Part shown: positions 1,417 through 50,035 of the stretch, in pieces | Position numbering within the stretch: position 1 is the first letter of the stretch | Layout: every line of letters begins with the position of its first letter | Assembly: GCA_030704615.1 (NCBI GenBank) | Contig: CM060734.1 | Span: forward strand, 29,574,001 to 29,638,000 | Direction of reading: 5' to 3' | Source of the DNA: Takakia lepidozioides | Lineage: Eukaryota; Plantae; Bryophyta | Length of the DNA: 64,000 bases | Made by a program: the position numbers and the translations under genes | Notes under the pieces: generated by a model | Told to the model about the DNA's origin: nothing | What the model saw: the letters and a program-made list of their open reading frames with translations, nothing else | The model's database searches: none

Positions 1417-1418
1417 AT

Positions 1419-9501: not shown

Positions 9502-9865
9502 TGATATGAAAGTGAACACAATAGAAACACTTCACTCTTGAATCCACTCAATCACATAAACTAAGTCAAGTCAAGGGCACCCTTGCTAAGGGAATCCACA
9601 CTACAAAGCCCTCAACACACTTCCTCTCAATACCTAGAGCTATGGAGGTGAGAGATGCTCATGGAGGCTCAACTACAAGAAGATGAGCCCTCCTCAACAC
9701 TCACAAGGGGAAAACCCATCCCCATGTCCCAAGTGAGGTTTGACACCTCACTTGACATGTAAGACCAAATGAAGTCCCAACACACAAAATACAAATATAA
9801 ATATCCAAAATGTTCTAGTTACTAGAAGTAGGTAATTTTAGTTAACCATGACTAAAACCATGACA
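9502..9865 (-). repeat. LTR segment X, outer (5') copy
   Basis: Repeat of 1419-1783; the minus strand starts TGTCATGG and ends TTTCATATCA. Confidence 0.9.
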
Positions 9866-10800: not shown

Positions 10801-12774
10801 ATATTTGGGAGTTGTCTTTGAAGGCGGCGCAATTGGTGCACTGCATGTGGCAGTATCAAGAGCAGCTTTCTCAGCCTACAAACGTCACGCCCAACACCCC
10901 TTAGCAGGACTTCACATTTAGCAATGCAAATGTCACAGCCTTATAGTACCCAACGTGGGTAAATGACCACAAACACCGTATTCGCTAAAAGTGTACTTTG
11001 AAAATGTCATTTTTTTTTCCAATTCCCCTAGAGGTTTTCATCAACTACAACATATAATTAACATTGGTGAAATTGTGCACCACCTTATGTACATGTACAT
11101 ATAACTTTCATATAATCATAGATATTACAAAAATCAATTTATTTTGATGAAGCAAATATAGAAGCTTATGATAATATTTGATCCCCAAAATTTAAAGTCT
11201 TCTAATGAAAACCTAGTATGTTTATGATTCCAATATATGCTATGAACCTGCAACCATTTGTGAGAGGATATGCACTGTTGGATTGAATATATTGATTATT
11301 TAATAGATAATATATATTCAATAATTGAAAAGTTGATTTTGTTTATGATTATTCATCCTTCATTAATTAGGATTAGCATCCATGAAATACAATCATCCAT
11401 CAAGTTATCCATCAAATCATCCATGTTTTATTGAATCTCCAATTGCAACAAACATGGGCATATATACAAGCACTGTGTACATATGGCTTGTGTAATTTCC
11501 TAGTAAACTCAAGTAATCATAGGCATTCCTAGCTTCCAACCCCACTGTGGAACCATATTTGGTAACTCCTTCATCCAATTCACATAATCCTCATCTAAAG
11601 TTTGTATCTATCGCATCCCTGCTTGTGTGCCATAACGATCCACCTCCGATTCAGTAACTCCAAGATTTAGGTCTTGTCGAAACCGTCGTCCATCCATGGT
11701 ATAATGAAATCCATCCACAAGGTTCATCTCTGTTCTTTCACCAAATGGATTGGCCCCTTCAACGCCAGCTGGAATGTAGTCTGGATCCGACTCTATCAGA
11801 GTTTGTTGTTTCAATCCCAATTAAAATGACGGATGTGTCTTTGTGGTTTGCCCCGAATGAGAGATTTCGTGGTGTGGTATATTTACCTGTAATGGGGTTA
11901 CGGGTGCCGCACTTGAGCCCTCTAAGAAATGAGATCCTTCTATGTCAAGGCGGATTCTCTTTCCTCCAGTACTTGGTCGACCATTGGAACCTTGTTTCCT
12001 GACTTGTTGAAATTGCAGCTGAGTTATATTTGCATCATCATTCTCCCCATCTTCATTGTCCCTTTGTGAATTGCTCATGTCATCGCTTACCTCATCATCT
12101 CCTCCATCTCCATTGGCCAATTGCATCAGTCAATTTCAAAGTCTTGTGGCATGACTGGCTCTGGTCACACGTTCGGTTTTTCAGCTGTACTTTTTTTCAG
12201 CTCCCTTTACGACGGCTGAGGCAGACTCCTCAGCTTTAGTCCCCTTTTTACATGCCAGAAACAACATGGTATAGTACATGAGTACTTACCATACATGTTC
12301 ACAAATGCATTCATGCAAGTATGTCACGCACACCAATAAATAGATCATACATGAATCTAACAAAGTCACAAACAAAAAGCCGAAGAAAATGAAACAAGAT
12401 AAAGTACTCTAAATGATGAGTTACCTCTTTCTATGGGGAAGTTGCCTTCACAGGAATATGTACACTCTGATCAGCCAACCCCCTACTGTCACCCTTACTG
12501 GCACTCTCAGTGGTGGGGGTTGGCAGTAACGCGATCTCGCGGTGAGACAAGTTCTTGATCGTGTCCGCTAAGAGTAAGGTGTGATAGACAGGCATGGTAC
12601 ACCGAATGTACTTCTACTTCAAATGAAGCTTTATACCCTCATGCTAATTACTGGGGGAGTTCTTGCCTTCCGCCAAACGCATGTACAACACCGGCACTAC
12701 GGGATCCTCTCCACCCACAATGCTGCTGCGAAGAGTTACCTCTACATCTTGCTCCTACAACATCTCCCGATTAT

Positions 12775-15700
12775 ATGTCACTGAGCACTACACAGCTTGT
12801 TTGTATATTACATATGAAGTTGCTAGGTTGGGATTCCCAAGTCATATTCTTTGATTATAACATTTTTATTTACCCAGCTGGGGTACTTTCACTTCTGGCT
12901 AACACCCAGAGCAATATCCTCACACTACCTCATACCTCAACACTACTCACACTTTCCGTTACTCATACTCCAATACTATTCTCAATCAAATCTTACATTC
13001 ATTGTACTTTAGTACTACTCTCCTACAAATGGTACACTGCTCATAATTTGATATTGCCCTCAAACAAAATTTCCATTGTTCAGATTCATGTACTGTTTTC
13101 AAACAAATCTTATATTGCTCATAACTTATTCCCTTTTTTATTATTCCTCACGCACACTACTCATGTACAGTATACGAATATATCACCCAAGTATAACTAT
13201 CATATACACAACTCAGATACACTACTCGGACTCGCACAACACCCGAATATACCACCCAAATATACCTCTCATGCACACCACTTAAATACACTACTTGGAC
13301 ATACTATTCATTTGTACTCTTCAGCCTTGATGCTATTCCCAAACACTTTTTCCGCTTCCCATACCACATTAATACTGACAAACAATTCTTTTGCTACTTA
13401 CACCTCGATGTTATGTCTTACAAACAATTCTGATGTAGTCTATACCTCCAAACTACTTACAAATAATTATTACCTTGTTCAATTATCCCCACAACTATCT
13501 CCTCACCCACACAAACCCGCGCAAAAAGTATTCACAAATCTCCCCCGCTCTCACAACCTGATAGCACTTAACCAATATTTCATCCATCCACAGACGCTCT
13601 CATCCATCCCATCATCCACAATCATTCACGCACCCCACCCTTATACCCAAATACTCAATATTCTCATTAAATATCCCGCCAAAAACTTCAAAGTTTTGGT
13701 ATTTCTACCACCCCAACCCAATTTATCCCCAATATATACCCCCCATTCACTCATCAACCACCAGCTCCACAACTCCTCATATTCACCAACCAACCTCCAA
13801 ATCTATGTCCCACTCACGCATTCCCTATCTCCCTATTCACATAATCCAACCATATCCCAATTACCTCCACCTTTCCAAAATACCATACCAAATACATATT
13901 GACCCCCTTACATTTGCCGTTCACCCACATGGAACCCGCCCTCAAAACCTTCTAAAATCCAAGCACTACTACCATCATCCCCCCTCACCCGACACGGCAT
14001 ATAGAATGACATGTATTGACCTCATACTTCTCAGATGTGGAGACATCCACCCTAACCTAGGGCCCTCTTCTATAGATGATTTTGTCAATTACCCACCGGC
14101 CCAAAAGATAGATATGCTTTATATTTCCAAAAAAACACCATCTCCCTCACCTACCCATACTAGCACTTATCTGACCATTTCCCCCCTTCCTCCCCAAAAC
14201 TTTTCCCTCTAACCCCACACATCAGACTCCCCCTCCACATCAAATCTCCACCTTTGGCCTTCCCGCTTGCCATCTCCCAGCTCTTACTCGTGCCACACAC
14301 AGACTCAGGGTTTTCCACACCCAACACATCCTCTTTGCCCTCATCATTACTATCTCCCCGCTACCCGAGACATGTAACATCTACTTTGAATGTCACGCCC
14401 TTTCCCAACTCCGTTCCCTACTCTACACAACCTACATAAACTGCCCTCGCTCCCCAACAATTACCTAGCCCCTCCACACCACCTCTCCGAATTACACTCC
14501 TCGCTTCAACTCCTACAATCCAAACCCGGAGTGCTCCACACAATCCTAACGACCATCTTGCCTCACTTACCTCCCCGACTCAAGACCTGCCAGCCCTCTC
14601 TAATAAATTCCCATATTTATCCAACGACATCATCTCTGCCACCCTAAAGGCAATAACCCCCCTCCCTGGATTCACAACTCCCCCCATCCCCCCCATCCCC
14701 CCAACCCTCCCACCCTCGCCTACTCACTCAAATGCACCTACACCCCCTCCTCCTCCGCCTACAATCTAAATACCAACTCCCTTAGCATCATCACCTGGAA
14801 TGCCGGTTCTATGGCCACTAGTATACAGAGCCTCATAACATTCTCACAGACTCCGTCTCCCCGCACATTATTCTACTACAAGAAACTAAACTACACACCA
14901 ACCGCCCTAATAGCTCATACATAAACAAGCTACTCCCGACATACTACTTCCTGTATGGCAACCCTTTGTCGGCTCCGCAATGTCTTAGGCGGCGCTCGGC
15001 CCCATACAGCCCCACCCGGGGAGGCGTTGCCATTGGCATCCTACGTACCCATCACTCTCCCAGCACCACCACCAAGGTGAACGTCCCCATCCCTCTTCGC
15101 TCTCATCTCCAAATTATCCAACTTTATATGTCTGCTCTTAACCCAATTACCATCATTCACCTATACATGCCCTCCCACACTGATGACCTCCAACTAATCC
15201 CAGATATTATGCTTGCGATTTCCAATACGATTACCCATCCTGATCAACAGCATCACCACTACATTCTCGCTGGTGACTTCAACAGAGATATTGCCCTCCT
15301 TTGACACTCCTATAAAGGCTCCCACCAACCCCCATCCCCTTCCGATCATGATTGGGCCAAGTTCACTCAACAACATCACTTTAGCTACATACCCGCAGAT
15401 CACCACTACTCTAGGCAAGGTGGTCTCCACTACTCCTCCCTCAGCCTCCTTGATGGTTTCTATCTCAAAACCAGCACCGAGATCCCGTCCTATCTCCGCA
15501 GCCACATTCACATTGACAACATTTGTAACTCTCACCACTACCCAATATCGATCTCTCTTCCCTTGTTCCCTTCCACCCCCTCCCTTCTATCCTTAAACCC
15601 CCCCTCCCCAACCCAGGTTCCTATCTCCATTACCCAAACATAACATCACAGCCTTCCAAAACCACTTCCAACCTATTGCCTCTATCCTAACACAAAACCT

Positions 15701-17870
15701 CTCCCATATCCTCTCCAATACGAACCTCTCACAGGAACCCGACAATACCTGGCTCGAAGCAGAGCTCACCCTCTCTTCCATCTTACTACAAATGACCAAA
15801 AGCGTTCTCACCACGTGTGCCGCTCCCCCGGACCTGCCCCAAATCTCCCGCTCTAAACAAAACGGGGGATATCTTACCCGTTCACAAAAGTGGGCCTGGA
15901 CCTCCCACCTAAACACCTATCACACTATCCACAGAGCTCTCACCGTTATTCCTAATTCTTCCACCCTCCCACTACACATAGACTGGCGCTCCGATCCCCG
16001 TATCTCATGCCTAAACTCCCTGTTTGTCTGCAGCCCGATCATGCCCCCTCCCAACGACCCCTCCAATCTTCCTAGCTGGATTGCTGCTCTCTCCAAGCTG
16101 GGGAGAGACGCAAAAAAAGTCGCCTACATTATTACTAAACAAAAAGCTACAGCTAATCACAAAAGATTTATTTCATCCTTTGGCCAATTACTACATGACC
16201 ACCCCAAAAAAGCCCATAAAGCTATTTTCAACCCTGCTCTAAACCCACCCATTGACTACCTCAAACATAGATCCGGCCAACTGCTCACCACCCCTAATGA
16301 CATCCCGATTTGATTCCAAATGCTATACTACAAGCTCTCGACCCTGTACTTCACCTCTTTCTCTTCAAATTTTTTAAACTTTGCTACCAACTCCGCCGGA
16401 TCCCGCACATATGGAAGCATAGCCGCACCATTCTCCTCTTCAAGAAAGGCGACCCTACGGATCTTAGCAATTACAGACCCATTGCTCTTGCTAACACTAT
16501 CTATAAACTATTTACCAACACCCTTACCAAGATGTTGTCCAACTATGGTGAACACCACCGCATTCTTAGCAACCCGCAAGAAGGCTTCCATGCCACACGT
16601 AGCACTACCAGACAAATACAATATGTGTTATCCGCCCTAGAAGACGCCAAACTCACAAACAAGATATATATCTCATATATATCGACTTCAAAAATGCTTT
16701 CGGCTCTTTAGACCACCCGCGTCTACTCGCCATTATGACAGACCTAGGCTACCCATCAGATGCTATACAACTCATCGGTAATATTTACACTAACAGCTCC
16801 ACGGAATATACAGGCTCATATTATGGTTCCACCCCTCCCATCCCAATTCTACGAGGCACTATCCAAGGCGACACCCTTAGTCCTTACCTCATTATCATCT
16901 TCCTTGAACCCTTGCTCAGATGGATTGCACGCGACAAACTTGGATACCAATACAAAACTTCTTCAAACGAAATTTCTGCTACCGCTTACGCGGATGACCT
17001 TGCCATCCTTGCGCACAAACCCCAACACCTCAACCGGCAAGTTGAAAAATTATCACGCTTTAACCAATGGTCTGGAATGGAACTAAGTCTTCATAAATGC
17101 GCCGTCACCGCGGCTACCCACCGCAGTAAGCTTACCAAATCTTCTATTGCGTCACACTGCAAACTATACATCCAATACCAGAACAAACCATTTCCCTTCC
17201 TAGGCCCTGATGAACCCTACACATACTTAGGTATTCAACTTGTCCCCTCGCTCACATGGAACGTACAGAAAATCGCTACACTCACCAAACTAACTAATTG
17301 AAGCTTAGCTCTCCTCAAAGCCCCCATAGCCATCAGGCCCAAACTCTCCCTCATAGAATCCGTCCTAAAACCACAGGTCCAATACTCATTCCATGCGGCT
17401 CCCTTCTCCCTCCCGGACATCATTCAAATCGACAGACAAATCATCCAACTCACTAAGCGCATTTGTGGTCTCCCCACTAGCACTCACAATGCTCTCACTC
17501 AACTCCCCACGGACAGATATGGCATCGGTACTAGTCCCTTAATAATGTCATACTCGCGCACTCTTGGCTCCCAACTACTCGAAGCCCTCAACGACCCGGG
17601 TCGTCTAGGTCTCATCTACCGTGGGCTACTCAAACACCTGGCCTCCAAGTATAATGGACTTCACTCACTACCTTTCCTCCACTCACAGTCTTGTCTCCAT
17701 TCCCCTACCGCCCGCTCCCTATCATACTCCGCCAGTTGAAAACCAGTGTGCAAACCGATCTCCCTGATTACCCCAAATCCATATCTCCCCTAGAACAGGC
17801 TTGGCATACTAGCTCTTTCCTCTCCCAATTCGAACGCAAATTCCCCCGCCAAAAGATACTTATCCTTCAG
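12775..17870 (+). mobile_element. Degenerate non-LTR retrotransposon (APE + RT; RTE-X-like), with internal deletion and 3' truncation
   Basis: APE motifs: IITWNAG (~14785), LQET, YILAGDFN (~15260). RT motifs: WKHSRTILLFKKGDPTDLSNYRPIAL, QEGF, IDFKNAF, RGTIQGDTLSP, AYADD, YTYLG. Many frameshifts. The 5' boundary and clade are uncertain. Confidence 0.85.
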
Positions 17871-19847: not shown

Positions 19848-21407
19848 CTGGATACAACTGGACAGCTGTATATCTTAGAAATGGGTATTGGTTTTTGGAG
19901 GCTCGAGTCCTATCCACGTTCCGACTGTTTCTTTGTGGAGGGGTTTAAGTTCTTGTTCTGCTTTGTCGAGTCTGAGCGCATTCTGGTTTTCTGCAGTCGA
20001 GGCCCGAGACTTGGCCCCTAAACCTTGGAAATGGGACGGTCCTTGGTACACTGCTTACACCTATGCGTGCCAAGTCTTTTTGGTCGTTTTGGAGGTCCCC
20101 TTGCTTATGGGCACGTGCCCCAGTCACCACCTCAATTCCATTAGTTGTCGAGTAACTTAGTTGTCGAGAAGAATGTGCGATGGAGGGATTTGCAGGCCTG
20201 GATCGTAGTCTTTGCTAATCTACTTCATCCGCCTACGGCCCTCCTCCAATCCAAGGCCCATCGAACTCCTGGCATTCTGGATTACTTTGGGGTCTGCAAA
20301 AGAGAACAACGTGTGCCATTATATGTCTCCAGAAACACAATAATCATGTAAAGAAGGGGTAATCGAGGTCTCTTGGGACCGTGATGCAAAATGAGTCCTT
20401 ACATCAGCTCCAGTGCATGGGGACATAAACCTCATAGACACCGAGATAACTCCATACTTCAAAATAAAGGCAAAACAAATTTGTTATATATCACTTTGGT
20501 AAACTCCCAAACCCTCACAACAACAAGAGTGCATGGGGACATGTGCAGACGTTGTGGGGAGGGTGCGATGTACGATCGTCTCTAACTTCTGATTCATGCT
20601 TCCTTAACTGATTCTCTTCCCTTATCATATCACTCAGTCTCATTATCTTTCCATGCTTCGTGGGGGAATCAAATTGAGTAGCTTCTTCTTCTTCTTCCCA
20701 GAACGTGAGCTAATAGTGGAGCCTGGCTTTAGAAGGTACACATACAGACAGAATCCCTAAGATCTCAAAGAAAAGAGAGTCGAATTTTACAATAAGAAGA
20801 CGTGTTGCACAAGCTGGATGACAAGATTCGGACGACCACTGTTGAAGGCTTTGCCCTAGTTGAGGAGGAAGAGGCTTGAGAAGAGTGTCAAGACTGAACG
20901 CCCTTTTCACAAACTGCAAAACCACTTCACAGTTATTATCTCAATGTCAAGCAACAAGATTCTGAAATGCCCACTCCCATACTCAACCATCTGCTCCCTG
21001 TCTTTGGTTTGCCCACGCATTGCTGTTTGAGGACCTACACCAAAACACGTAAGCAAGTGAGTCAACCAAGAAGCAGAAATTCAAAAACATGGAGCACCCA
21101 CAAGAGCAACATGGATAGAAAAAGAAATCCTCTTTTGCCCACTCCTAGCTCGACAAGTTGTCGCCATACGGCAGGGCGACAGCGGCTTGGTGACAACGAG
21201 CCCCTCGCCTCTTCCCTCGTTTTGTCTCTCTCTCTCACGAGCACAGCGTGATATGCTACGCCATATACTGAACTACAATCCCCCATGGCTTGTCTGCAAA
21301 CCCATCTCTGTCTTTCTTTCTATGGAACACACGCACAAACTTTCAGGCAGGAACTTGGATCCGAACACTGCTGTTCACAGTGATATCTGGACAGGAGGTG
21401 CGTAGCG

Positions 21408-22826
21408 ATGGATGTGGCAACCTCAGTGGGGCAGACAGAGTTTACACTGGACCTGTACAAAGCGGTGGTGAAGCATCAAGGTGCCAGATCTCGTCCTATT
21501 TGAAGCTTCCGGGAGATGTTATGCACGATTTCTCGTCGCATTTGAGGAACGTTGTGTTGGCTGATGGCAGCGCACAAGGGGGGCCCTTGCTAGCGTCCGC
21601 TAATAAAGTGTGGGTGGAGCAAACGGTACCTCCCAAGCCCCCGTTTATGGAGCTGCTGAAGAGCCGCTATGGATCTGAAGCTGGACAGGCTGATTTCCAA
21701 TCAAAAGTAGGGTGGTTTTCCGGCTCTCTCAATGTTATTCTCCTCTCCCTAATTCCGAATAATGTTATCCCGTAGTCGAATTCAGAGCCTACTGTGAATG
21801 TTCGACGTGGCCTACTACTTTGAGGCTACGGGTTTTCTGCTCATGCTGCCTCGTTTATTAGAGAGATGAAGCAGAAACTGAATTCCACATCGTCTATGAC
21901 ACAATTTGAACTAAATTTGGGGCTTACCCCATGTCAACCCTTGGTGTCCGAATTCGTGGTGGGATGCCAGGGTATCTAGCAGTGTCAATTTTCTATCCAA
22001 CCTACACTAGGAAATATGCAGTCAGTCATCAATTCTCAACATGGGTTTTCATTTACTTTTGTTTTGGTGGTGAGACAGGCTGAGGAAGCCAGAACAAGTA
22101 TAAATACATGGGTCAAGGATGAAACCAGGGGAAAGATTGAGGACCTCCTTCCCCAAGATTCTGTGGACCATACTACGAGGGTTGTATTGGTCAATGATCT
22201 TTACTTCAAGGGAGCTTGGAAGAAACCATTCGAGGAATCAGAGACCAAAGATGGCACATTTTATCTGCTGGATGGAAAGAGCCTAACAGTGCCCATGATG
22301 CGGGCTCAAAAAAAGCAGTTCATTGAAAACTTTGGGTCATTCAAAGCGCTTCGGCTCCGCTAGGATGTCCCAGGTGATGACAAGCGCTTAGATGGACTGA
22401 CCCAACTTGAGCAGAATCTGGATACAAAAGTGCTTGGGTAGGATCTGTCCAATATGAAATCGAAGGTCACAGTAACAAACTTTCAGCTGCCGCGCTTTCA
22501 GATTTCGAGTGGATTTGAAGTGCCTGAGGCCTTGAAAAACCCTGGTCTTGTATTACCCTTTTCGAATGATGCTGATTTTTCAGAGCTGGTGGACTGTCCG
22601 AGTGGACAGCCCCTCTATATTTCCAACATCTTTCATAAGGCATTTGTGGAAGTGAATGAAAAGGGTACTGAGGCTGCCGCTGCAACTGGAGTCTCCATTA
22701 GTCTGCTTTGTTATCAGGAACCTGAAGAATTTGCGGCAGATCATCCATTTCTGTTTGTGATTAAGGAAGAGTTGCCAAAGTCATTCTTTCATTGGCCGTA
22801 TTACTAACCCCATTGGTGCAAGCTAA
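21408..22826 (+). pseudogene. Plant serpin pseudogene (2 exons; intron ~21707-22078)
   Basis: MDVATSVGQTEFTLDLYKAVVK, then deletion/frameshift. GGPLLASANKVW, INTWVKDETRGKI, LYFKGAW, in-frame TAG stops, hinge/RCL EKGTEAAAATGVSISLLC, ADHPFLFVIKE. Confidence 0.9.
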
Positions 22827-28744: not shown

Positions 28745-28932
28745 TGTCGTGCGCATACATATCGCTACACAACTACATCGCTGTCCAAAACCACACAACA
28801 CATGTGCACACCACACACTAGTATACCACTAGTCCACCACTAGTCCAGCCACTAGTCCAACCACTAGGCTACAACTAGTCAGTCACTAGGCTGCCACTAT
28901 GCTGCCCACTATGGCAGTCACTAGTTCACACA
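28745..28932 (-). repeat. LTR segment Y of copy 2 (188 bp, expanded by CCACTAGT-like repeats)
   Basis: Lies between the PPT (28933-28943) and the TSD; shares TGTCGTGC and ACATCGCTGTCCA with Y of copy 1. Confidence 0.75.
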
Positions 28933-29192
28933 ATCGCCCCCCTAGCTGGTGCTTAGGTCCCTCTAAGTCCAGGTAGCCACAAGATGTGATAGTGACCATA
29001 GCCTCACTAAGTCCTCCACCACTATTCCTACTACACTCAAACTCGATAGATCAAGAGGCCGGGTGCAAGAGTTGCCCCATCGTTAGTCGCCGTCTTGCAA
29101 CCTGTGAACTTGAGCTTGGGATCTCATGTATTGACTCCTATGAGCTTGGCCTCCCATGTCTTGTTAGCTGCCTCCAGTCATGTCCACTACCA

Positions 29193-29345
29193 CTATCCCA
29201 AGCAGTGTGGACACAACCAATCTCCGTCAGGAACCTTCTCAAGAGGTGGTGTCAAGCATCCCATATGCCAACCCCTTGAGCATCGATCACACACCAGCAT
29301 GGTGGCTGCCCCTTTGGCAGACCCACAGAGCATGCTCCTCAAACC
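29193..29345 (-). other. PHD finger (C4HC3) at the integrase C-terminus
   Basis: (S)MLC-GSAKGAATMLV-CDRC-SRGW-HMGC-LTPPLEKVPDGDW-LCPHC, with the conserved Trp; the first Cys is replaced by Ser. Confidence 0.9.
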
Positions 29346-30480
29346 TGCAGGTACCACTGTCAAGTTTGGGTCAACTCTGCCATCGACATTGGGAAGGTGA
29401 CATGGCGCACAATTACGCACATGGTCCTTCCAAGTCTTGCCATCCCGACCCTCTAAGATCAGGACCCCTGAGGGCAACACCTCTCGAACTCTCAGAATAA
29501 CACGCCCTGTAATAACATCCAGAGTCGTAGGAGCAGTCTGCTGCAAATAAACATAGTCACCAGGGCTAAACCTCCGAACCCCAGGACGATATCCTCCACC
29601 ACGTATAGTGGCATACCTCAACGTATCACGGTGCTGTGCAATGCAAGGTTCTCAAAAGCCATGGGCATGACTTTCTTGAACAACTCTGCACGCTGATCAC
29701 ATGCACGTACCCACACGTCCGGATTGTCAAGGTTAAGGACTTGAGTAGTGTCCCTACGAATGGCTGCAGGCAAATCTGGCTCTCGGCCAAAGAGAAGGAA
29801 ATATGGTGAGAAGAGGCAAGTGATGCTTGTTTGCTGAACCTGTAGCCCATGGCTAACCAAGGAACCTGAAGATCCCAATCTCCTAGGTGTCCCTTCTGCA
29901 AGCCATACTTGCGCAAACCCCTCTTCACCGTCTGAACAACTCTCTCTGCTAAGCCATCGGCCTCAGGATGATCCCGAGAAGTGGTGCGGTGGTCTATCAA
30001 GGCTTTATCACACAAAGCCTGAAACTCCCCCAAAAATCTTCTCCCTTGGTCCGTGAGTACCTCAGCTGGAGCACCAAATCGGCTAAGCACACGATCCAAA
30101 GAATGCATACGCAGCCCCTCACTAGCCTTGTCAGGCAATGGAACAACTCAATCCACTTAGAGAAGTGCTCCACCATCACAACACATATCTGTGGTGGCGC
30201 ATAGTCAGTGGCAACGGTCCTGCGAAGTCAAAAGACTCACCTGTAGCCCAATCCCATGATTGGTAAAGGATGCAACGTGGTGTAGGGGCGTTGAATGAAG
30301 CACGCACCCTGTCACACACCATGCACCTAGCCACGAACTGTTGCACCTCTGTATGCATACCACGCCACCAATACTGCCCCTGCAGTAAACTGTGAGTGAG
30401 TCGCACTCCAAAATGCCCCAACTCCTCATGGTGCATGCCGCACTAACCGTGCACGCTGTGTGGGGTGAGGCACAATCCTC
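29346..30480 (-). pseudogene. DDE (rve) integrase with HHCC zinc domain, frameshifted
   Basis: HEELGHFG...YWWRGM...CMVC; DFAGPLP; VEHFSKWIE; FGAPAEVLTDQG; HPEADGLAERVVQTVK; SPYFLLFGREP; FSPGDYVYL. Confidence 0.93.
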
Positions 30481-30824
30481 ACACGACCATCCTCCCACAC
30501 TCGAAGTAGGTGTATCCCCTCCCACTTGAACCTCTTGGCTCGTTGCAGGATCCGATCCTCTCCCTGGCAGTCACAGTGGCTGTCGTGTCTCCCGTGCGGA
30601 GGTAGTCCAACACAGCCGAATCCTCATGTATATCTCTGGCACCACCTGGCTCATCACTAGCCTCAGGGTCCTCAGACACTCCGTCTACAGTCATCCTGTT
30701 GTAGGTCCAACCTGACCTCCCGATGCAAAGATACACAAAAAATGACAGATGCGTGCCATCCCGACACCATTCCTCGTCGTATCTCACCATGCCACCGGCC
30801 TCATGTCGTCATCCTGTTGGCTCA

Positions 30825-30890
30825 GTGCATGGATTGCGCCTCAAATCCATCCGCATCCCTATTGACCAAACTCGGTCGATGACACACCTG
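30825..30890 (-). pseudogene. RNase H C-terminal remnant
   Basis: HRPSLVNRDADG(fs)LRRNP fits the Ty3 RNase H end motif HrxGxxNxxADxLSR. Confidence 0.6.
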
Positions 30891-31354
30891 AACATGTCTC
30901 GTCATGCTCATCCACCGTTTAGCACGAGAGGCAAAGCCATTCCTGCAAGCCTCAGGAACCGCCGTATACGTCGTCTCTCTCTAGTAGTAGACATAGGTCA
31001 AGCAATGTCAAGCTCCCAATTGCCCTTCGTAACTGCAACCTAAGTCCAGCAGACTTAGAGGTAGAGGACGCGTCCCGTGGTTGCTATGCCGCACCTCTTG
31101 AGCAGTACTCCCTGCCTGCTCAGTCAATGACAAGGCCTCATCCTGCCCCATCATCTCATCCTTGAGGACCTCCATCACAGCCGCCTTGGCTTGCCAACTC
31201 CCTCTGAACCTCGACACCTCCCATGTGTGCCATGGATGCCTGCACCCCGTGGTCCTCACATGCTCGCCCCCACTCACTGCCTGTACCGTCTCGGTAGGCA
31301 GGAGAGGACCATTGAGGGAAGTGTACTCCGCACTCTACATTGCTCAGCCAGAGC

Positions 31355-32310
31355 CAAGCTGATAATCCAGGTCAAGCAATTGAGATCCATTGCTTGCCCC
31401 AACACTTGACGACGTGATGCCTCAGAAAGAGACGACACCGCTGTGGTACCAGTGGTAAACCCATTGCCCGCTCACTCGTCAGCATTAGGCTCCACTAACT
31501 GCTGCAACTGAGCATCCCACAGGAGGCCAGTCCACTATCCGGAAAGCATGCGATCTGGGAAGCTGAGCAGTGTAGGTAATGCTGCTCGTGGTTGACCCAC
31601 CTTGTTGACCACTGCCAAAGGCGATGTGGTCATCGTGTCTCACACGCTGAGACTGCTCCCCTCCCATGTGCCAGAATGTTATCCACTGTGAGATTGTGCT
31701 GGCCGCTGCAACCCCATCAAATGCACTCTTGAGCAGCGCGGGTGGCATCAAGTAGTCCACCATAGCCATGGACGATGAGCCCGTGGACCCCACTGTAGCT
31801 GCATCTAGCAACACTGCTGACCCAAGCCACGACCGACTTGATGCACACTGGCCATCCCACCCTGGCTCGAGAATCGCCCATCCACACATTCTCCAAGATG
31901 TATGCGGTGGAGATACAGCTTGATTGAAGCTGCAAGTGGCGCAAAAACCCGCACCATCTCCCAAACAGACCCGACCTCGAGTCTCGCAATCCATTGTCAT
32001 GCCCGGCTGAATGAATGCCCTTGGCAGGGCCAACCTGCCACTATACCAGATCAATGGAGCACAACCGCTCCAAATCCTGCGCCCCCAGCACGACGAAATG
32101 TCTGCTGGCAAGGCCTGCTGATATCCACGATTGCCAGACACCGACAACAACTCAGGGTACCGCTGCACAACTGAGCAACATGGCGAAGTTGAAACGCGTC
32201 GTGCAGTCTCATCCTCTCCACATACAAGTAACGCCAAACTCGTACACCTGCTTGTAACACAGTAGCCAATCCGGTGTGATCCCGCCAAACAAGTCCAGAA
32301 GACAATGCCT
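31355..32310 (-). pseudogene. C5 cytosine DNA methyltransferase domain of copy 2 (many indels)
   Basis: TGLATVLQAGVRVWRYLYV, ALPADI, AGWPCQGHS (~32015-32040), YILENV, GSAVLLDAATVGS, SRRQVLGQAMDLNCLTWIIS. Confidence 0.88.
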
Positions 32311-32689
32311 TCATCATGGATACTGCCACACAATAGGTGTGGTGTCCAATGGAGACAATTGAGGTGGGCCCTGGTGCAATCCCCACACTCTCCTCCTCTC
32401 CTGACGGTACAAAAAGCCTCCACCCGGCTTGTTGACACCCGTCGATCAGCATCTCGCTGCAAATCCTTGCTCGGCCCACAATGGAGTCTGAGCAACCATG
32501 GTAGCAACTCCGCCATACCATACATGTCATCCTACTCTCCCGGAGGGGTACCATCCTCTGAATGAGCATTGCCCTCAAGCAACTTTCTAGGCCAACTCAC
32601 TGCCGCTGTGAATGCTGTGCTAGTGTCGGCATCTTGCTTCGCTGGGCAACCGCAACTCCTCCTATGAACGTCACAGGGAGCTACACACG

Positions 32690-33110
32690 CCGGCCCTCCC
32701 CTGACTGCCATGCAAGCCTATAGGAAGCTGACTCCTCCCAAAAATCAAGGGGAAGCCCATGGGGTACAACACTGCCCCACCAACCAGGACATCGTATGAG
32801 ACTGCGTCTGTCACAATGGCCTTGGCTCGCATCACTGAGCCATCTGTAGGGTGATCCGGCCGTAGTCTTATAGCCAACTCACACCGTGTCATGCCCCGAG
32901 CCTGCTCCGATCCTCCCAGAGACGTCTGTATCTGGAAAGGACAAGGCTCCATATCCGCCTCCGTGAGGCCCAAGCCTGCAATAGCAGCTCTGCCAGCATC
33001 AATGGCTGAGCTCCCGAGTCCAACAAGACCCGTAGTGGCCGGTACCTATTGCCCTTGCCGCGGGTCCACTCAAACAGAAAATGTCATCCTGGTTGTCTAA
33101 CATGACAACT
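32690..33110 (-). pseudogene. Aspartic protease of copy 2
   Basis: VLLDSGAQPL (~33001-33030) ... YDVLVGGAVLYPMGF. Confidence 0.85.
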
Positions 33111-33554
33111 CCAGGTGTCACCATGGGCGCCTCAATGGCTGGCCTAGCTGGCAGCTCCATCAACCTGGCAGCTGCAGCTTGCCATGGCGCCGCCGTGGCA
33201 GTCTTGACCCTCAAATCCGAGGATCCCTCCGCACTACACCTCCCAATATCTCCGCAGAAGATGAAGTAACCTCCCCACTCTCAATAGTGTAGCTGCCAGC
33301 CTGAATACCTCAGCTGGTTTTACCCCCGGCGTCGCAATCATGGTAGCCGAGAACAATGGAGTCTGGCACACAGATATATGGCCGCTCCTAGCAGCACACT
33401 AGCTGACGCAGCCTTGGCAACACTAGGTAGTGGTGCTACCCGTGTAGCTCTCCCAAATGGCATAGTAACCTCCGCCTCGGTAACGTCGGGCGAGAACTAG
33501 GTGCCAGGCGATGGCGTCGACACTGTCTCCGCCAATGTGAATGACTGAGGAAGC

Positions 33555-35245
33555 CTAGCCTGACGGCTTGCCTCCCCATGCTGTGGATCCAACTCCACCT
33601 CTGCGCACTCGTGGCTCAGGAACTCGTGCTGCTCCTCGAGTCACGGCTGCAGCAGACTCCACCTGCACTAGTGGTAGTGCTGCTCCACACATGAATCCAA
33701 TGCCTCCCATATCTCCTCCCTCAGGAGCAGGAGGTGGACCATCCGGCCTTAGAGCCGGTACCACCTGAGTTGTAGCCATGGCAGCGAGCCTCTGCTCTAG
33801 CTGCTGAAGCCGGTTGGCCATGCCTTGGTCAACACCCTGACCTCCGCGTCCTTGGCCACGTTGAGCTTGCCCTTGGCCTACACCTCGTGGCTGGCCACCT
33901 CGTCCTCTCTGGGCTGCTCCACCTCGCCCCCGGCCACCATTGTTCCCTTGGAACTGGCCTGGGCGCAACTCAGGATGCAAACCATAACACTGGGCCTCTC
34001 CATGCCCGTGCTTGCCACAATGCCCACACTGCAACTGTGCAGGCTGTGCATGTGCCGACCCTTTGCCTCCCTCTGGGCAATCCTTCTTGACATGGGGTCC
34101 TCCACATGTCCAGCACACCACCTCTGCCCGTTGTTGGCCAGCAAATGAAGGGAGAGACCCCTGCATCTGAGGTCCTCTCTGCCTTCCCTGAGCTTCACCT
34201 GAGCCCCCTTGTTGCCTTGAGCACGTTGAGGTAGTGGTTGGCTAGGAGCACCACTACCCCATGGTGTCTCCTTAGCAAATCCCACCATGACCACTCGTTC
34301 CTCCACCATGTTGAGCTCTATCCGTTCTGCCAGCAAAAACACATTTGCTAAGGTGGGTTGGGCCGCTTGCAGGAGAGTTGCATCCTGCACCCTTCTCCTC
34401 AGCTCCTTATCCAATATCCCATACCAGAATTGGACTGCCTGAGCTTCCATAACCCCTTGGGTTACATTTATCAAGCGCCTCATGCGAGTGAAAGCCTCCC
34501 TCAAGCTCTCGGTCGGCTTCCGTTGGAACTCTTGCAAGCTCCGCAACTTCTCTGTCCTCACCCCTTGGTAGTTCCCTCTCAACTCTTCGAAGAACTCCAC
34601 AACAGGGTTGAAGGCAGGCACGGGTGCTAGTGCTGGTGCGGTAGTGGCTTGGGTGGATGTCGTAGCTACTGTACCACCAGTCCCACTAGTTCCACTGCTA
34701 CTTGCTGAAGCTGCCGGTGCAGCGGCAGGTGTAGCCACTGCCCTCGTGGCTCTAGTGCCCCTAGTGATGGAGACATAGTCGGGTGACCAGTACATCCTCC
34801 ACTCCTCGATCTCAACCTCATGCCCCCGCCTGAACTCATGGTAATCATCCATAGGCGGCCCCTCAAGGTGCTGAAACAGCCCTTTCCATGCCATGAACGG
34901 CGTAAATAATTGTGGATTGCGCATTTGCTGCAAATCACACCAACTATCAAACTCTTGGATAAAATCATCCAACTCGATGGCGCCCACCGCCCCAGAGTAC
35001 CTTCGTGGCCCCTTGGTAGCTCCATACATCTCCTCCATTGTGTCCCACAACAATGGCAAAGAAACAACTTGCACCGCCGGTATGAGTCCTCCTGATTCAC
35101 AATCCGAATCAGAACCTTCCGTGGAAGACACAGGAGGTGAAGGTGGCCTAAACCGCACACCTCGTCTCGTGTACCCACTAGTATCGCTAGTGCTCGAACC
35201 GGCACTGTTCCCAGCAACTAGTGGCACCTCCGTGTTGACACTCAA
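33555..35245 (-). pseudogene. Gag of copy 2 with two zinc knuckles and an RG-rich tract (one frameshift near 34170)
   Basis: ORF 33878..35245 plus ORF 33555..34166; knuckles CWTCGGPHVKKDC and CGHCGKHGHGEAQC. Confidence 0.88.
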
Positions 35246-35979
35246 CCGGTCATGAACATGTCCCTAACTCCCTCTCCACAAGGTAACCGGGTAGAGAACC
35301 TGTTGCGGCTTATGGTTTGGAATACTAAGTTCCTAACATAGCCTACACATGTACCTGCATCCACCGCAAGCACTCCTATGGTTGGCTGGTCATCACCTCC
35401 AACCTCACCATAGGAGAAACAATGATGGTCTGGCTGGTCATCACCCCAGCCTCACCATCGACAGCATGCTCTAGGACTGGCCGGTGATCAAATCCGGACC
35501 AATCACCTATAAAAACAAGCGCCCACACAAAACTAGCATGGCGCACAGTCAAGCATGCAGGTATGAAGGGGATCCAAACACAAGAAATCAGAACGACAAC
35601 TCCCCCACACCAAAAACAACTCCACGGTGTTGCTCCTGCAAGGACACCCCAGCCCAAACCCGGACTGACTCTTGCCTCCACCTACGGAAAGGTCTTGGCC
35701 TAATGAGAGGGTGGAAACTACGAGGAAGAGAAGCTAAAACAATGCCTAACCCCAGCATGCCCTCATCCCAACACTCTTCCTCTCCTCTCTTCCCTCACTT
35801 GCATGACCATGGGAATATCATGAAGATACTCCTCAAACCGCCCTCCACGAGCTTCAAAATTCGGCCTTCCAGCCCACATGCCAGTCCTTAGGCAGTCCAC
35901 CAGTGCCTCCACGAGTCAGCACAGGCCGTCCACAGGTCAACACGGGCCACCACAGACCAGCACAGACCCACACACCTCA

Positions 35980-37085
35980 CTGGTCACAGCCGTCACAGTC
36001 CCGCAGGCCACTGGGCACAGCCTGTCACAGCCCCGCATAGCCCGTCACAGCCCCACAGGCCACTGGGCACAGCCTGTCACAGCCCCTCACAGCCCGTCAC
36101 AGCTCGCCACAGCCCTCACAGCCCCAAAGGCCTCAGGCACGGCCTGACACAGCCCCTCACAGCCCGTCACAGCCCCAAAGGCCTCAGGCACGGCTTGTCA
36201 CAGCCCCTCACAGCCCCAAAGGCCACGAGCACAGCCTGTCACAGCTCCGCACAGCCCGTCACAGCCCCACAGGCCTCAGGCACGGCCTGACACAGCACCT
36301 CACAGCCCGTCACAGCCCCAAAGGCCTCAGGTACGGCCTGTCACAGCCCCTCACAGCCCATCACAGCCCCCAAGGCCACCGGCGTAGCCCGTCACAGGCC
36401 CTCACATCCCCCGAAGGCCACCGGCGCAGCCCGGCACAGCCCGTCACAGCCCTGAAGGCCACCGGCGCAGCCCGACACAGCCCCTCACAGCCCCAAAGGC
36501 CTTAGGCACGGCCTGACACAGCCCCTCACAGCCCGTCACAGCCCCAAAGGCCTCAGGCACGGCCTGTCACAGCCCCTCACAGCCCGTCACAGCCTCAAAG
36601 GCCTCAGGCACGGCCTGTCACAGCCCCTCACAGCCCATCACAGCCCAAAGGCCATGGGCACAGCCTGTCAGAGCCCCTCACAGCCCCACAGCCACTGGGC
36701 ACAGCCCGTCACAGCCCCACAGGCCTGGGCACAGCCTGTCACAGCCCCTCACAGCCCGTCACAGCCCCACAGGCCTCAGGCACGGCATGACACAGCCCCT
36801 CACAGCCCGTCACAGCCCCAAAGGCCTCAGGCACGGCCTGTCACAGCCCTCACAGCCCCTCACAGCCCCAAAGGCCATGGGCACAGCCTGTCACAGCCCT
36901 CACAGCCCGTCACAGCCCCACAGGCCACTGGGCACAGCCTGTCACAGCCCCTCACAGCCCCAAAGGCCACGGGCACAGCCTATCACAGCCCCTCACAGCC
37001 CCACAGGCCTCAGGCACGGCCTGACACAGCCCGTCACAGCCCGTCACAGCCCCAAAGGCCTCAGGCACAGCCCGTCACAACCCCA
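35980..37085. repeat. ~1.1 kb GC-rich minisatellite (TCACAGCCC(C/G) core) in the 5' leader of copy 2
   Basis: Dozens of CACAGCCC units within higher-order units containing AAAGGCCTCAGGCACGGCCTG. Confidence 0.95.
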
Positions 37086-38606
37086 TCCATGGCCACTCTG
37101 GCAGTTTAGCCATTTCTCCAAGGGGTTTAGCCACGCCAAGCTAGGGTTTGTGTCTCTTGGACTCTAGGCTTCTTTCCACCGAGCTATGGCGGCTGTGAGG
37201 AAATCAGCAAGGTATTCTTGCTCTTTCGGCTCCCACACACCACCATAGTAGCCCTAAGCCATGAGGTGGTTGTCACAAACCAAGCCTTCTTTATCACTTA
37301 GCCTCCCCAAACACGCCACTAAACTCAATGGCAAACAACCAAGCCCTGCTGGTTCCCAGCCCTTATGAGCACTCATTCAAGCACTCTCCTTGGCCATAGC
37401 ATCTGTCTTAGAGCCTATTCCAACCCCCTACACTTGCTGCTTCAAGAGTTGCGCTCTCTTCAAGCTTGAAGTTGAAACCCCAACTCACATAGGCCCTACA
37501 AGTGCTTTTCTTTCACTCCAAGTGGAAACCAGCCCTAGACCTTCCGTTCTAGCTCTCTAAAGCTTGAAAACAAGAGCCTCAATGGGCTGAAGGCATGCTC
37601 CACACATGCCCCACTCTCACCATCAGAGAATCAGCTCCTTTGCTTCATTTCTTGCACCCACAAACCTGAAAATACAAGCTTCAGCAGGTTGAAAGTATGC
37701 TCCACATGCCCTACAGGGAAACCAGCCCCTTCCTTCCTTTCTTGCACTCCCACACTTGAAAGTGCAAGCCTTCACCAGGCTGATAGCATGCTCCACACAT
37801 GCATTGCCCTCACATAAGGGAAGTCAGCCCTTCCCTCTTCCTTGCTTGCCCTCCAAGCTTGAAGATGGAAGCTTCAATGAGCTGAATACATGCTCCACAC
37901 ATGCAACCTCTTCACACAAGAGATATCAGCCCCATATCTTGGCTCCTTGGCTCCTTGATGCTCTCTAAGACAAGACTAAGCACTACACAGCCTTTGCCAA
38001 GCTCCTGAAACCCTAAGGCTTACATTTCCAGCCACAAGACACTTCTCTTGTGGTGCAATAGCTCTTCTTCCAAGCTCTGAAACCCTAGGTGTACATTCCA
38101 TGGCCTTGCCGCACCTCTTAGCTCCTGTTCCAGCCCTGCTCTTGCCATGACAAGAGCCCTCTCAATACTGAAGGTCGAGATTGAAACCCAATCTCACCAT
38201 ACTCCACAAAGTGCACGATTTGCCCCAAGCCAAATCAGCCCTTTTGCTTGGTCTTGCAATCCTTCACACAATGAAAGCTCGCATTCCCAAGTCCAGTTCT
38301 CAGCTTTGCCACCAAAGCCACTATAACCTGCTCTTGACTGGTCCTCTTCCCAATCGTGCTTGCTCATGCATGTATACAATCTGAAACCATCAAGGTGCTC
38401 TGGAATTACCTGCAGCATGGTGCTTTCATCTCTGAAGCTGAAGATCGAATGCCAAGGTCTACCACCTCGTAACCCACATCGCCTCCGCTTCTAACAACCA
38501 AGAGCTCCACGGTGCTCCTTGCATAACAACTTGGTTTCTCTCATTCTCAAGCAAAAACCACAAGTGCTACAACTAACTCGTATCTGGCACTCACAGATAC
38601 GAGCTG

Positions 38607-38618
38607 ATCTTTCTCGAG
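38607..38618 (-). promoter_or_regulatory. Non-tRNA primer-binding site of copy 2 (CTCGAGAAAGAT)
   Basis: Abuts the ...TTTATCA end of X and is the exact reverse complement of 38774-38785. Confidence 0.75.
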
Positions 38619-38935
38619 TGATAAAGAAGAAGAATACAAGCACGAGCTCACAAATCTGAAGCATAAACTCATGCATATATAACCTCATCACTCAAATACA
38701 AGTCAAGCCAAGTGCACCCCACGCCATGGGGAATCCACACTACGGCGCCATAGCTAGGCGCAGTGAGGCTCAACTCGAGAAAGATGAGCCTCCCGCGCTT
38801 GCCGTGAAGATAACCACTCCAGGGCCTAAATCTGCCTTGACCCCTGGATTGACACTTGGGCCAATCCCAAATATCAATATGTAAAAACTAGCTATTTCTT
38901 AGCTAGTTTCACACTAGTGGTAAAATAACTTGACA
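38619..38935 (-). repeat. LTR segment X of copy 2 (317 bp)
   Basis: Shares AAGTCAAGCCAAG.GCACCC...GGGAATCCAC.CTAC and GAGGCTCAACT...AAGATGAGCC blocks with X of copy 1. Confidence 0.75.
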
Positions 38936-48290: not shown

Positions 48291-49919
48291 TTAAACGTGA
48301 TCTTTATTAGTTTGCATACGAGGGTGAGAAGCGTACTTCCCAAATCTTCGAGCAACTTCAGAGCTTGTCATGGTGTCCCAGACATGTAGGTTTCCTTTCG
48401 AGCCTCCAAGAGCTAAAAGAAAGGGGGCATCCCTGCAGAAACTCGAGGAGAAAACAGCTCCCACTTTAGGGTTTGCGGATGCAATGCATGATGGCTGATT
48501 TCCAGTTATGTCCCATAACTTTACCATCTTGTCTGTTGAAGACGTTGCAAGCAGGTTAGGGGCTGCTGGGTTGTAAGAGAGGCTGCAAACAGCCTTTTCA
48601 TGAGCGTGGATTGTGAATACAGCCTTTCCATCTCCCTTGGCGCCAGTGCTGCTGGAAACAGTACTAGAGCCCCCCTTGCGCACATCGTGGCCTCTAACAG
48701 TGCCGTCTTCTAAGCTCACCGTAAAGGAGTGGGATGTATGGGGATCCCAGGCCAGGCATTCAACATCAGCTGTAAGAGGCCACCGAATCGCTTCATGGCT
48801 CGGTGCCCTCATGTCTGTCAAAGCCACAGTTCCATCAAAGGACCCGCTGAGAAGAACAGTTGGTTCACTTGGATTCCAGGCAACAGCTTGCACCTTGTTA
48901 GTATGAATCTGCAAAGTATGCTCACAAGTCTGCTTGACAATGTCCCATATTTTCACTGAAAGATCAGCACTAGCACTGGCAATGACATTGCGATACTCAG
49001 CATTCCATGCAAGACCTAAAACAGCATCTGTATGGCTGCCCTCCTTGTATCTCACTTCCTGTTTCTTCTTCTTTTTCTTTGAACTATTTGACTTTTTACC
49101 ACTTGTCTCGTCTCCCAGAACAGGCGCCTGGAGAACCCCACCCAGCACCGCCGCAGGCTCCACCTCATCGACCATATCCAGGTCCCATATCTCGATTTCC
49201 GGCTGCATTGTCCCTACCGCCACATAATTCCCCTTTCCATCTCCTTTCGGATTGCAGTCAAGCCATGCCAGGCACAGAGGAAATGCCGGCAGCATAATGT
49301 CATGATGAACATACATGTTACTTTCTGCTGGTTCTGTTTCATTCTCTCTTGCTTCGGTCTCGTAAACCCATACCTCAAGATGGCTGACATCATCTTCGTT
49401 GCGGACAGTCAGAATCAGCAAATCCGATGCTTTGATGGTCATGTCCTCTATCTCGTCGTCATCATCGTCATCCTTGTTTGTCAGGTAAGGATCATCCTCG
49501 TTGGAGGCATAGTAGGCGGCGCCCAGCCTTCCGTTGCCAAAAATCTCAACCCCGCCATCTTCATCGTCGTCGTCATCATAGTGATCCATGTCAAGCTCTG
49601 CAAGCCCGTCAACGATATTATCCACACGCGCCTTCTCTTGGCGTTTCTTTTGCAAGACAGAAGCTCCTAGAGCGTTGGCAGCTGCCAACGCCATAGCCAC
49701 GGTATCAGCACCCTCGCCCTGCTTGCTGCTTTCAGCTTCCATCTCCTCAACCTCCGCATCTTCATCCTCCTCGCCATCAGAGCTCCCCCCGTGAGAGGGG
49801 GAAGCTTCAGAGTCGTGTGCGAGAAACGCCGATAGAAGGTCAGCCTCAGAGGGGGGCTCGGCCAAAACAGGCACAGGATTGGCCGCGCCTTTTGGCACCC
49901 AACACACTGCAGCAATCAT
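48291..49919 (-). CDS. PWP1: Periodic tryptophan protein 1 (WD40, ribosome biogenesis), intronless, 542 aa
   Basis: MIAAVCWVPKG start, acidic region, NMYVHHDIMLPAFPLCLAWLD, GNYVAVGTMQPEIEIWDLD, SHTDAVLGLAWN and WD repeats. Confidence 0.93.
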   Translation of the reverse strand: MIAAVCWVPKGAANPVPVLAEPPSEADLLSAFLAHDSEASPSHGGSSDGEEDEDAEVEEMEAESSKQGEGADTVAMALAAANALGASVLQKKRQEKARVDNIVDGLAELDMDHYDDDDDEDGGVEIFGNGRLGAAYYASNEDDPYLTNKDDDDDDEIEDMTIKASDLLILTVRNEDDVSHLEVWVYETEARENETEPAESNMYVHHDIMLPAFPLCLAWLDCNPKGDGKGNYVAVGTMQPEIEIWDLDMVDEVEPAAVLGGVLQAPVLGDETSGKKSNSSKKKKKKQEVRYKEGSHTDAVLGLAWNAEYRNVIASASADLSVKIWDIVKQTCEHTLQIHTNKVQAVAWNPSEPTVLLSGSFDGTVALTDMRAPSHEAIRWPLTADVECLAWDPHTSHSFTVSLEDGTVRGHDVRKGGSSTVSSSTGAKGDGKAVFTIHAHEKAVCSLSYNPAAPNLLATSSTDKMVKLWDITGNQPSCIASANPKVGAVFSSSFCRDAPFLLALGGSKGNLHVWDTMTSSEVARRFGKYASHPRMQTNKDHV

Positions 49920-50035
49920 CGTTCACGTGTGTGTAAGTATGTATGTGCGTGAGAGACCGGCAAAGGTCCGGATGCGAGCTCTAAGCTACAGAAGAGAGAA
50001 GAGAGACAAGCAGAGGCAACTCCTGCTTTCCACTC

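Follow-up and report, generated by a model that had tools for sequence, protein, structure and literature searches.

A decayed Ty3/Gypsy retrotransposon of the moss Takakia lepidozioides ends its pol region in a canonical PHD finger, in what appears to be the slot of the chromovirus chromodomain, and also encodes a DNMT3-like cytosine methyltransferase (DNMT). The finger is real, family-wide and conserved, and it is built from known parts. We regard it as fairly probable that the PHD finger serves as a tether and the DNMT as a marker of the element's cDNA, in parallel, in what is now a dead element of the KnitGypsy-Dnmt3 type. The analyzed window, 64,000 nucleotides of contig CM060734.1, holds two copies of the element, both on the minus strand.

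Architecture and decay of the two copies

Copy 2 (28745-38935) has TG...CA termini, a layout of repeat A, body and repeat B, and the 4-bp target-site duplication ATCT on both sides. Repeat A forms the 5' end (38620-38935, which includes 38773-38785) and repeat B the 3' end (28745-28932), next to a polypurine tract (28933-28945); A and one B are its only repeats. From 5' to 3', the body contains a tandem array of ~51-bp units with a strong strand bias in the leader (35900-37170), the Gag core (34286-35008; a weak Pfam match together with profiles from relatives), a frameshifted aspartic protease region (32663-33045), the frameshifted DNMT3-like C5 cytosine methyltransferase domain with its PCQ and ENV motifs retained (31349-32275), a TAG CAA CCA stop in a CAR-YYA readthrough-type context at the ORF1/ORF2 boundary (31078-31086), a frameshifted integrase zinc-binding domain and catalytic core (29809-30479), an integrase C-terminal beta-barrel (29361-29612), and the PHD finger (29199-29339). 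At approximately 30860-31080, about 1.2 kb comprising RT and most of RNase H is gone relative to the related locus L017. Profiles built from relatives detected gag, protease, DNMT, integrase, integrase C-terminal domain and PHD in copy 2, and no RT or RNase H core. Its reading frame is broken, with DNMT, protease and integrase spread over several frames; copy 2 is a dead element. The gag-PR-RT-RH-IN order, DDE-type integrase, TG...CA ends and short target-site duplication mark the element as Ty3/Gypsy.

Copy 1 (1332-9865), a non-autonomous derivative that arose by deletion, retains full split direct repeats and has the target-site duplication ACTG. The same profiles found gag, protease, DNMT and half an RT in this copy; its DNMT3-like domain (3171-4129) has one stop and one frameshift. 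Two deletions have left it without RNase H and integrase and with only a remnant of the PHD finger. The last PHD codons (GDWL*PRCLG), which the first-pass annotation had recognized, were located at 2136-2165, where they adjoin a fragment that originally lay upstream of the integrase and that itself abuts the cut RT. A TAG CAA CCA at 2803-2811 is in frame with the RT. Copy 1 also has its own 54-bp tandem array near 7845-8006, unlike the ~51-bp array of copy 2. Neither copy is able to move on its own.

The split direct repeats of copy 1 consist of A1 (9506-9865), B1 (1786-1870), A2 (1424-1783) and B2 (1332-1418), with a palindromic B1/A2 junction; the two repeat pairs are 96.9% and 94.5% identical. 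The same A1...B1 A2 B2 layout was found in related loci L003 and L017, and 4-bp target-site duplications are present in these two relatives as well as in both window copies. Split repeats with a palindromic B1/A2 junction thus coexist with a DDE integrase and 4-bp duplications. A tyrosine-recombinase element of the DIRS type was ruled out by the presence of DDE-type integrase domains and 4-bp duplications. The palindrome was also observed behind the PHD finger in the distant relatives L042 and L061-L063. In copy 1, copy 2 and L017, the bases directly behind repeat A are a perfect complement of a stretch within A, resembling a self-priming signal (9672-9686 with 9488-9502 in copy 1; 38773-38785 with 38607-38619 in copy 2). 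The letters of this complement differ from family to family.

A PHD finger in the chromodomain position

A minus-strand frame of copy 2 (29193-29651) encodes 152 residues with the PHD finger at their end. PF00628 matched residues 108-150 with an E value of 6e-11 and 42.6 bits, compared with the curated Pfam cut-off of 24, and PDB sequence matches, a structure model and alignment with relatives agreed with the assignment. The model had a pLDDT of about 90 and an rmsd of 0.5-1.4 Å to solved PHD fingers over 45-49 residues. Seven of the eight zinc ligands are in place; the first zinc-binding Cys, found in all 31 aligned relatives, is replaced by Ser. In related public contigs from run X1, this codon read Cys in 769,086 of 769,147 of the summed word depth, and it did so throughout in runs X5 and X12. 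The Ser is private to copy 2. The claim that a C4HC3 PHD finger closes the polyprotein of copy 2 therefore holds as far as the end of the frame is concerned, but the finger has lost one ligand, and the polyprotein is split over frames and has lost RT and most of RNase H.

The finger directly adjoins the integrase C-terminal domain, and a stop codon follows 2 residues beyond it. In a chromovirus, the SH3_Tf2-1 region to which the C-terminal domain aligns is followed by the chromodomain, which there stands where the PHD finger stands here. A search of PDB sequences with the C-terminal domain returned no match. We label this domain SH3-like because of its structure model, weak MLVIN_C matches in relatives and the alignment with the chromovirus SH3 region. 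Pfam searches found no chromodomain in 36 frames of the two copies, and none was found in 26 relatives at an E value of 0.05. PF00385 was present in one of 120 matches of the PHD-free P0010 search described below, a flowering-plant chromovirus that was used as outgroup. These comparisons support the first-pass view that a PHD finger, rather than a chromodomain, ends the integrase, and support its placement in the slot of the chromovirus chromodomain, as judged by alignment. Foldseek matches to the Tudor-PHD pairs of PHF1 and UHRF1 were rejected as indicating a Tudor reader; their rmsd of 12-14 Å reflects the order of a beta-barrel followed by a PHD finger. Pfam gave no match to an ADD domain, and the finger is of the plain C4HC3 type.

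Retention of the finger among relatives

A search with the PHD-bearing frame recovered 166 longer proteins, and the full C4HC3 spacing was present in 104 of the 120 matches listed. Such a query selects for the PHD finger, and three other tests therefore used PHD-free queries. The first consisted of residues 20-860 of relative P0010, from RT to the integrase core. Matches that extended at least 50 residues past the integrase C-terminal domain were considered callable (86 of 120, the query itself being among the matches), and a PHD finger was found in 79 of them. Among the remaining seven were a divergent finger rich in Cys, three Tetraselmis proteins whose finger has decayed or disappeared, and ends with frameshifts. 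When the L001 integrase served as query, 134 of 135 callable sequences among 150 representatives had the finger. Patterns of RNase H and the integrase core retrieved 80 metagenome loci, many of them copies of one family and hence not independent; the finger was present in 52 of the 54 callable loci and frameshifted in one of the other two. The first-pass annotation had named absence of the PHD finger from most intact copies as the outcome that would count against it; the counts run the other way.

The dN/dS ratio of the PHD finger could be computed for six pairs of relatives and was 0.035-0.064; these are rough estimates, as dS was about 1.3-3 and near saturation. The ratios indicate that the finger is under purifying selection. 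The copy 2 finger itself gave 0.26 relative to L048, a value made unreliable by frameshifts and saturation. The closest named relatives of the element were from Marchantia, Calypogeia, Riccia and Sphagnum.

Predicted ligand of the PHD finger

By sequence and fold, the best PHD relatives in the PDB were KDM5B PHD1, PHF21A, CHD4, ATXR5, DPF2/3, BAZ2A/B and UHRF1. The H3K4me3 readers have a cage Trp two residues before the zinc-binding His; among 151 distinct complete fingers of the family, this position is Gly in 136 and Trp in none. In KDM5B PHD1, L325, P347, G349 and W351 hold A1 of H3, D328 holds R2, and D308 holds unmethylated K4 (PMC4225485). Counterparts of L325, D328, P347, G349 and W351 are present in the copy 2 finger, and they are conserved across the 151 fingers (Leu in 109, Asp in 137, Pro in 144, Gly in 133 and Trp in 142). 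The A1 pocket and the R2 acid have thus been kept in algae and land plants alike. Copy 2 and its subclade lack a counterpart of D308, and E321 is not kept in that subclade either; an acidic residue within four positions before the first Cys occurs in 81 of the 151 fingers overall.

The fingers of KDM5B PHD1, PHF21A, ATXR5, BAZ2A and UHRF1 share with the present one the C4HC3 fold, the Pro-x-Gly-x-Trp pocket for A1, the Asp after the third Cys and the absence of an aromatic cage; the difference lies in the missing counterparts of D308 and E321 in the subclade of copy 2. Because the residues contacting A1 and R2 are kept and the cage Trp is never present, the likely ligand, as predicted from these residues, is the free, unmodified H3 N-terminus. 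Sensitivity to K4 is uncertain: with the counterparts of D308 and E321 missing, discrimination at K4 may be weak.

The DNMT3-like domain and its pairing with the PHD finger

The best PDB matches of the DNMT domain were DNMT3A/B/C (E = 6e-8). Its catalytic Cys was retained in 98 of 102 full domains, and one pair of relatives gave a dN/dS of 0.11. At 27 loci that were callable for both domains, 21 had DNMT and PHD, one had DNMT and a frameshifted PHD, and five had the PHD finger alone. Among the last, L049, L061 and L062 are single long intact ORFs, two of them near-identical. In 47 complete pol ORFs, defined by RT, RNase H, integrase and PHD in one frame, the DNMT was located between RNase H and integrase in 34 and before RT in 4; nine had no DNMT, seven of which were too short upstream to tell. 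The first-pass annotation was thus right that the two domains usually occur together (21/27 loci and 38/47 ORFs). DNMT without an intact PHD finger was seen in three Tetraselmis proteins.

A tree of the RT-RH-IN region was built from 98 sequences, without REXdb references, and rooted on a single chromovirus. Elements with the DNMT in the middle formed a clade with a support of 0.96, the named members of which were chlorophytes, and those with the DNMT upstream formed a clade with a support of 0.91 that included bryophytes, Klebsormidium and Tetraselmis. By these counts and the tree, the pairing is old and steady, yet neither fixed in position nor obligatory. A DNMT tree, which had no host DNMT3 outgroup, is consistent with a single capture of the DNMT followed by relocation; P0135 is tagged "mid" in that tree wrongly, as its gene model lacks RT.

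Many algal-type relatives (P0046, P0050, P0053, L060 and others) had additional domains behind the PHD finger. One is a barrel resembling a Tudor domain (weak PF21743); the other has a Rossmann fold, motifs resembling those of adenine methyltransferases (weak PF02086) and a fold that weakly matches a type I restriction methyltransferase. The arrangement RT-RH-DNMT-IN-PHD plus Tudor-like and adenine-methyltransferase-like domains was present in 14 of 150 representatives, and the atlas matches of these tail domains scored below 0.9, which makes them a lead at most. In L055, L061 and L062, algal-type elements lie in near-identical head-to-tail tandems, with 99.9% identity over 3.5-5.5 kb in L055 and L062.

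The stop between ORF1 and ORF2

In the intact relative L001, a single in-frame TAG (L001:5083-5091) separates an ORF1 of 1369 codons, ending in the DNMT, from an ORF2 of 1047 codons, ending in the PHD finger. The domain order is gag-PR-DNMT-(TAG CAR)-RT-RH-IN-PHD, and ~2 kb of RT-RH-IN coding sequence as well as the stop lie between DNMT and PHD. CAR directly followed an in-frame TAG before RT at 19 of 28 loci, and TAA-CAA was found at the same site in five more. The strict CAR-YYA context was present at 5 of 27 loci, compared with 0.27 expected from shuffles. The commonest context among the loci was TAG CAA CCC, one base away from the consensus; both window copies have TAG CAA CCA. UAG followed by CAR YYA is described as the tobamovirus readthrough signal (PMC2754532). 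Our literature search found no paper on a readthrough signal of this kind in retrotransposons. From its conservation and context, we predict that the TAG is a site of stop-codon readthrough, with protease and DNMT encoded in ORF1. The arrangement is not universal: in many relatives, DNMT and PHD share an uninterrupted frame (34 with the DNMT in the middle and 4 with it upstream, out of 47 complete pol ORFs). In algal relatives, where the DNMT is located just before the integrase, a fused DNMT-integrase product is possible.

The likening of the element to animal DNMT3A, where a reader is coupled to the methyltransferase through ADD, is not supported in view of the conserved stop between the domains, the shifting position of the DNMT and the PHD-bearing relatives that have no DNMT. 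Copy 1 itself has been left with a DNMT and no PHD finger.

Surroundings and abundance of the element

The window contains NAC, serpin and ketoacyl-synthase genes, a PPR fragment and LINEs. The end of the serpin-like gene is 5.9 kb away from copy 2 on one side, and the ketoacyl-synthase gene is 4.8 kb away on the other. The serpin gene (21272-22807, plus strand) lies in pieces over several frames and may be a pseudogene or split by introns. A WD40 frame of 543 codons (48291-49922) and the NAC frame of 423 codons (54671-55942), both on the minus strand, have no visible introns. At a distance of 2.7 kb from copy 1 is a decayed LINE with endonuclease and RT (12559-17739, plus strand), and the minus strand carries the end of a zf-RVT LINE at 63244-63999. 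In the flanks, 52 frames of at least 70 aa had no credible Pfam match, two weak matches being below cut-off. The suggestion that both copies sit in TE-like or gene-free DNA agrees with the flank frames, but not with host genes at 4.8 and 5.9 kb from copy 2.

Copies of the family abound in the source species, one run alone yielding 26,403 matching contigs. An expression look-up returned 0 reads in one raw RNA run (of another organism label, sampled 1 in 100) and seven contigs in a run guessed to be RNA. The ratio of observed to expected CpG was 0.37 and 0.46 in the two copies and 0.48-0.70 in their neighbors, a difference too weak for an inference of self-methylation. Annotated bryophyte genes for "cytosine methyltransferase" or hypothetical proteins were often found to be ORF1 of this retrotransposon (the Marchantia gene models among P0124-P0139, as well as P0122 and P0133). 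With a family this abundant, annotations of bryophyte genomes may take the DNMT of the element for a host DNMT3.

Discussion

KnitGypsy-Dnmt3 of Klebsormidium nitens shares with the present element a Dnmt3-like domain in a Gypsy polyprotein and DIRS-like repeats (de Mendoza et al. 2018, PMC5890265, as far as its text is available), and it is because of the split terminal repeats that we place the two together. The same portion of that text mentions neither a PHD finger nor a readthrough stop. Its Fig. 4c may draw a PHD finger, since K. nitens relatives carry one. It also treats the DNMT capture as an event of the K. nitens lineage, whereas the type described here reaches liverworts and mosses and, with the DNMT moved, chlorophytes. 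K. nitens proteins among the relatives were P0177, with DNMT-RT-RH-IN, and P0040, P0045, P0086 and P0212, with IN-PHD. Kinship was judged through these proteins, and P0177, in which the DNMT precedes RT, belongs to the same clade (support 0.91).

The PHD finger also has precedents. REM1, reportedly described by Perez-Alegre in 2005, is said to be a PHD-bearing Chlamydomonas element. Gypsy-7a_cRei and other Chlamydomonas elements share a PHD finger in the Gypsy Gag-Pol, and for them an intergenic bias has been reported and the idea of targeting voiced (Craig et al. 2023, PMC9940879); the legend lists no methyltransferase and the LTRs are ordinary, the comparison with our clade being by description only. 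Chromoviruses differ in that they carry a chromodomain, which points to methyl-lysine, whereas the PHD class found here, with no chromodomain, points to unmodified H3 N-termini. They are reportedly also the subject of Gao et al. in 2008. What they share is a histone-reader-type domain behind an SH3-like integrase C-terminal domain (REXdb, PMC6317226); the accessible REXdb text has no mention of a PHD finger and does not support the Selgy clade as PHD-bearing. EpiLTRs likewise join a chromatin reader and DNA methyltransferases in an LTR element, but these are a chromodomain, DAM and a DNMT4-related enzyme; the part of the preprint at hand mentions no PHD finger and declares EpiLTRs distinct from streptophyte Gypsy-DNMT3 (bioRxiv 10.64898/2026.05.21.726589). 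Animal DNMT3A, with its ADD, also unites a DNMT3-type catalytic domain and an H3-reader-type zinc finger in one locus. There, ADD is adjacent to the catalytic domain and regulates the enzyme within one chain; the present finger, in contrast, is a canonical PHD separated from the DNMT by ~2 kb of RT-RH-IN and a stop. In the passages available, PHD fingers are called widespread in retrotransposons (PMC6673714; bioRxiv 10.1101/2021.11.30.470311; PMC8557442), and the streptophyte retrotransposon DNMT3 is mentioned again without a PHD finger (PMC12344493). We found no open-access text in which PHD and DNMT3 are brought together in a single lineage or the pair is traced over green plants; descriptions may exist in Repbase, in theses or subscription papers, in figures or in bioRxiv supplements. 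The parts are known singly; that they are steadily paired in algae, liverworts and mosses seems not to have been described.

In the reading that we favor, the PHD finger at the tip of the integrase would likely tether the integration complex to H3 tails without K4 trimethylation, binding the free H3 N-terminus through A1 and R2. Insertions would be steered away from H3K4me3 promoters, as the chromodomain steers chromoviruses by another mark. Gag-PR-DNMT would be the major product, and readthrough of the TAG would yield RT-RH-IN-PHD as a minority product. The protease of Ty3 separates the parts of its polyprotein; a DNMT made at the level of Gag would likely be released in this way, act inside the particle or the pre-integration complex, and probably methylate the new cDNA of the element itself. 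Both modules would serve one aim, a quiet and tolerated insertion, in parallel and not as one coupled enzyme. Self-methylation of cDNA has been proposed for retrotransposon DNMTs (PMC5890265), and the placement of the DNMT in ORF1 suits packing of many copies with the cDNA better than it suits an ADD-like reader. The KnitGypsy DNMT had no activity in yeast, a result that its authors call inconclusive in the same text. The PHD-bearing Chlamydomonas Gypsy inserted between genes 2.6 times more often than expected by chance (PMC9940879), although this bias of Gypsy-7a_cRei may reflect selection.

ADD is specific for unmodified H3, and the present finger belongs to the unmodified-H3 class, which is one reason to consider that the PHD finger brings the DNMT to chosen chromatin and that the insertion site and its flanks become methylated, as ADD does for DNMT3A. 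The frequent co-occurrence of the domains, the DNMT3A/B/C matches and the algal subclade with the DNMT right before the integrase in one frame all fit such a coupled kit, and both domains could share one pre-integration complex without being fused. We nevertheless hold it to be unlikely, as an in-frame stop, RT and RNase H lie between DNMT and PHD, the position of the DNMT differs between the two subclades, each domain occurs without the other (PHD alone in L049, L061 and L062, and DNMT with no intact PHD in the three Tetraselmis proteins), and the finger, an ordinary C4HC3 PHD, has no match to ADD. Reader and writer likely act separately because the DNMT is encoded in ORF1 before the stop and has a different position in algal relatives, and because some PHD-bearing relatives lack it.

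The partner of the finger might instead be DNA, a host protein other than a histone or a protein of the element itself, with a role in folding, multimerization or nuclear import, or the finger might titrate or recruit chromatin factors after integration. The K4-reading acid is missing in this subclade, and PHD fingers occur in many classes of transposons at positions unrelated to integrase ends (PMC8557442 and PMC6673714). Conservation of the A1 pocket and the R2 acid over algae and land plants, together with the coincidence of the PHD and chromodomain positions, makes such a role doubtful. That copy 2 captured a host PHD exon by chance, or that the finger is a nonfunctional passenger, is suggested only by the lost ligand and the dead state of this copy, and is highly improbable: the finger is collinear with the integrase in hundreds of relatives, its dN/dS is well under 0.1, and at the altered codon nearly all related contigs with the same species label have Cys. 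At the level of the family, the retention counts, the dN/dS ratios and the Cys in related contigs refute a relic.

A farther-reaching reading is speculative, and we regard it as unlikely. It would see in these elements an ancient green-plant Ty3 lineage parallel to the chromoviruses, with a PHD finger that reads unmethylated H3, a DNMT dosed by readthrough at the level of Gag and, in algae, Tudor-like and adenine-methyltransferase-like domains. PHD and DNMT would meet in the pre-integration complex, and copies would land in H3K4-unmethylated chromatin, arrive with their flanks methylated and seed host heterochromatin.

Chromodomains are the textbook means by which plant LTR elements choose chromatin. 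Here, a second lineage, found in chlorophytes, Klebsormidium, liverworts and mosses, has a PHD finger in the chromodomain slot in almost every member. As the parts were known, the gain is one of scope and mechanism and not a new category. With this lineage, it can be tested directly whether a lack of H3K4 methylation can guide retrotransposons to their targets, and the predicted readthrough stop, which would tell the amount and place of the DNMT, makes the question of what retrotransposon DNMT3 enzymes methylate a testable one.
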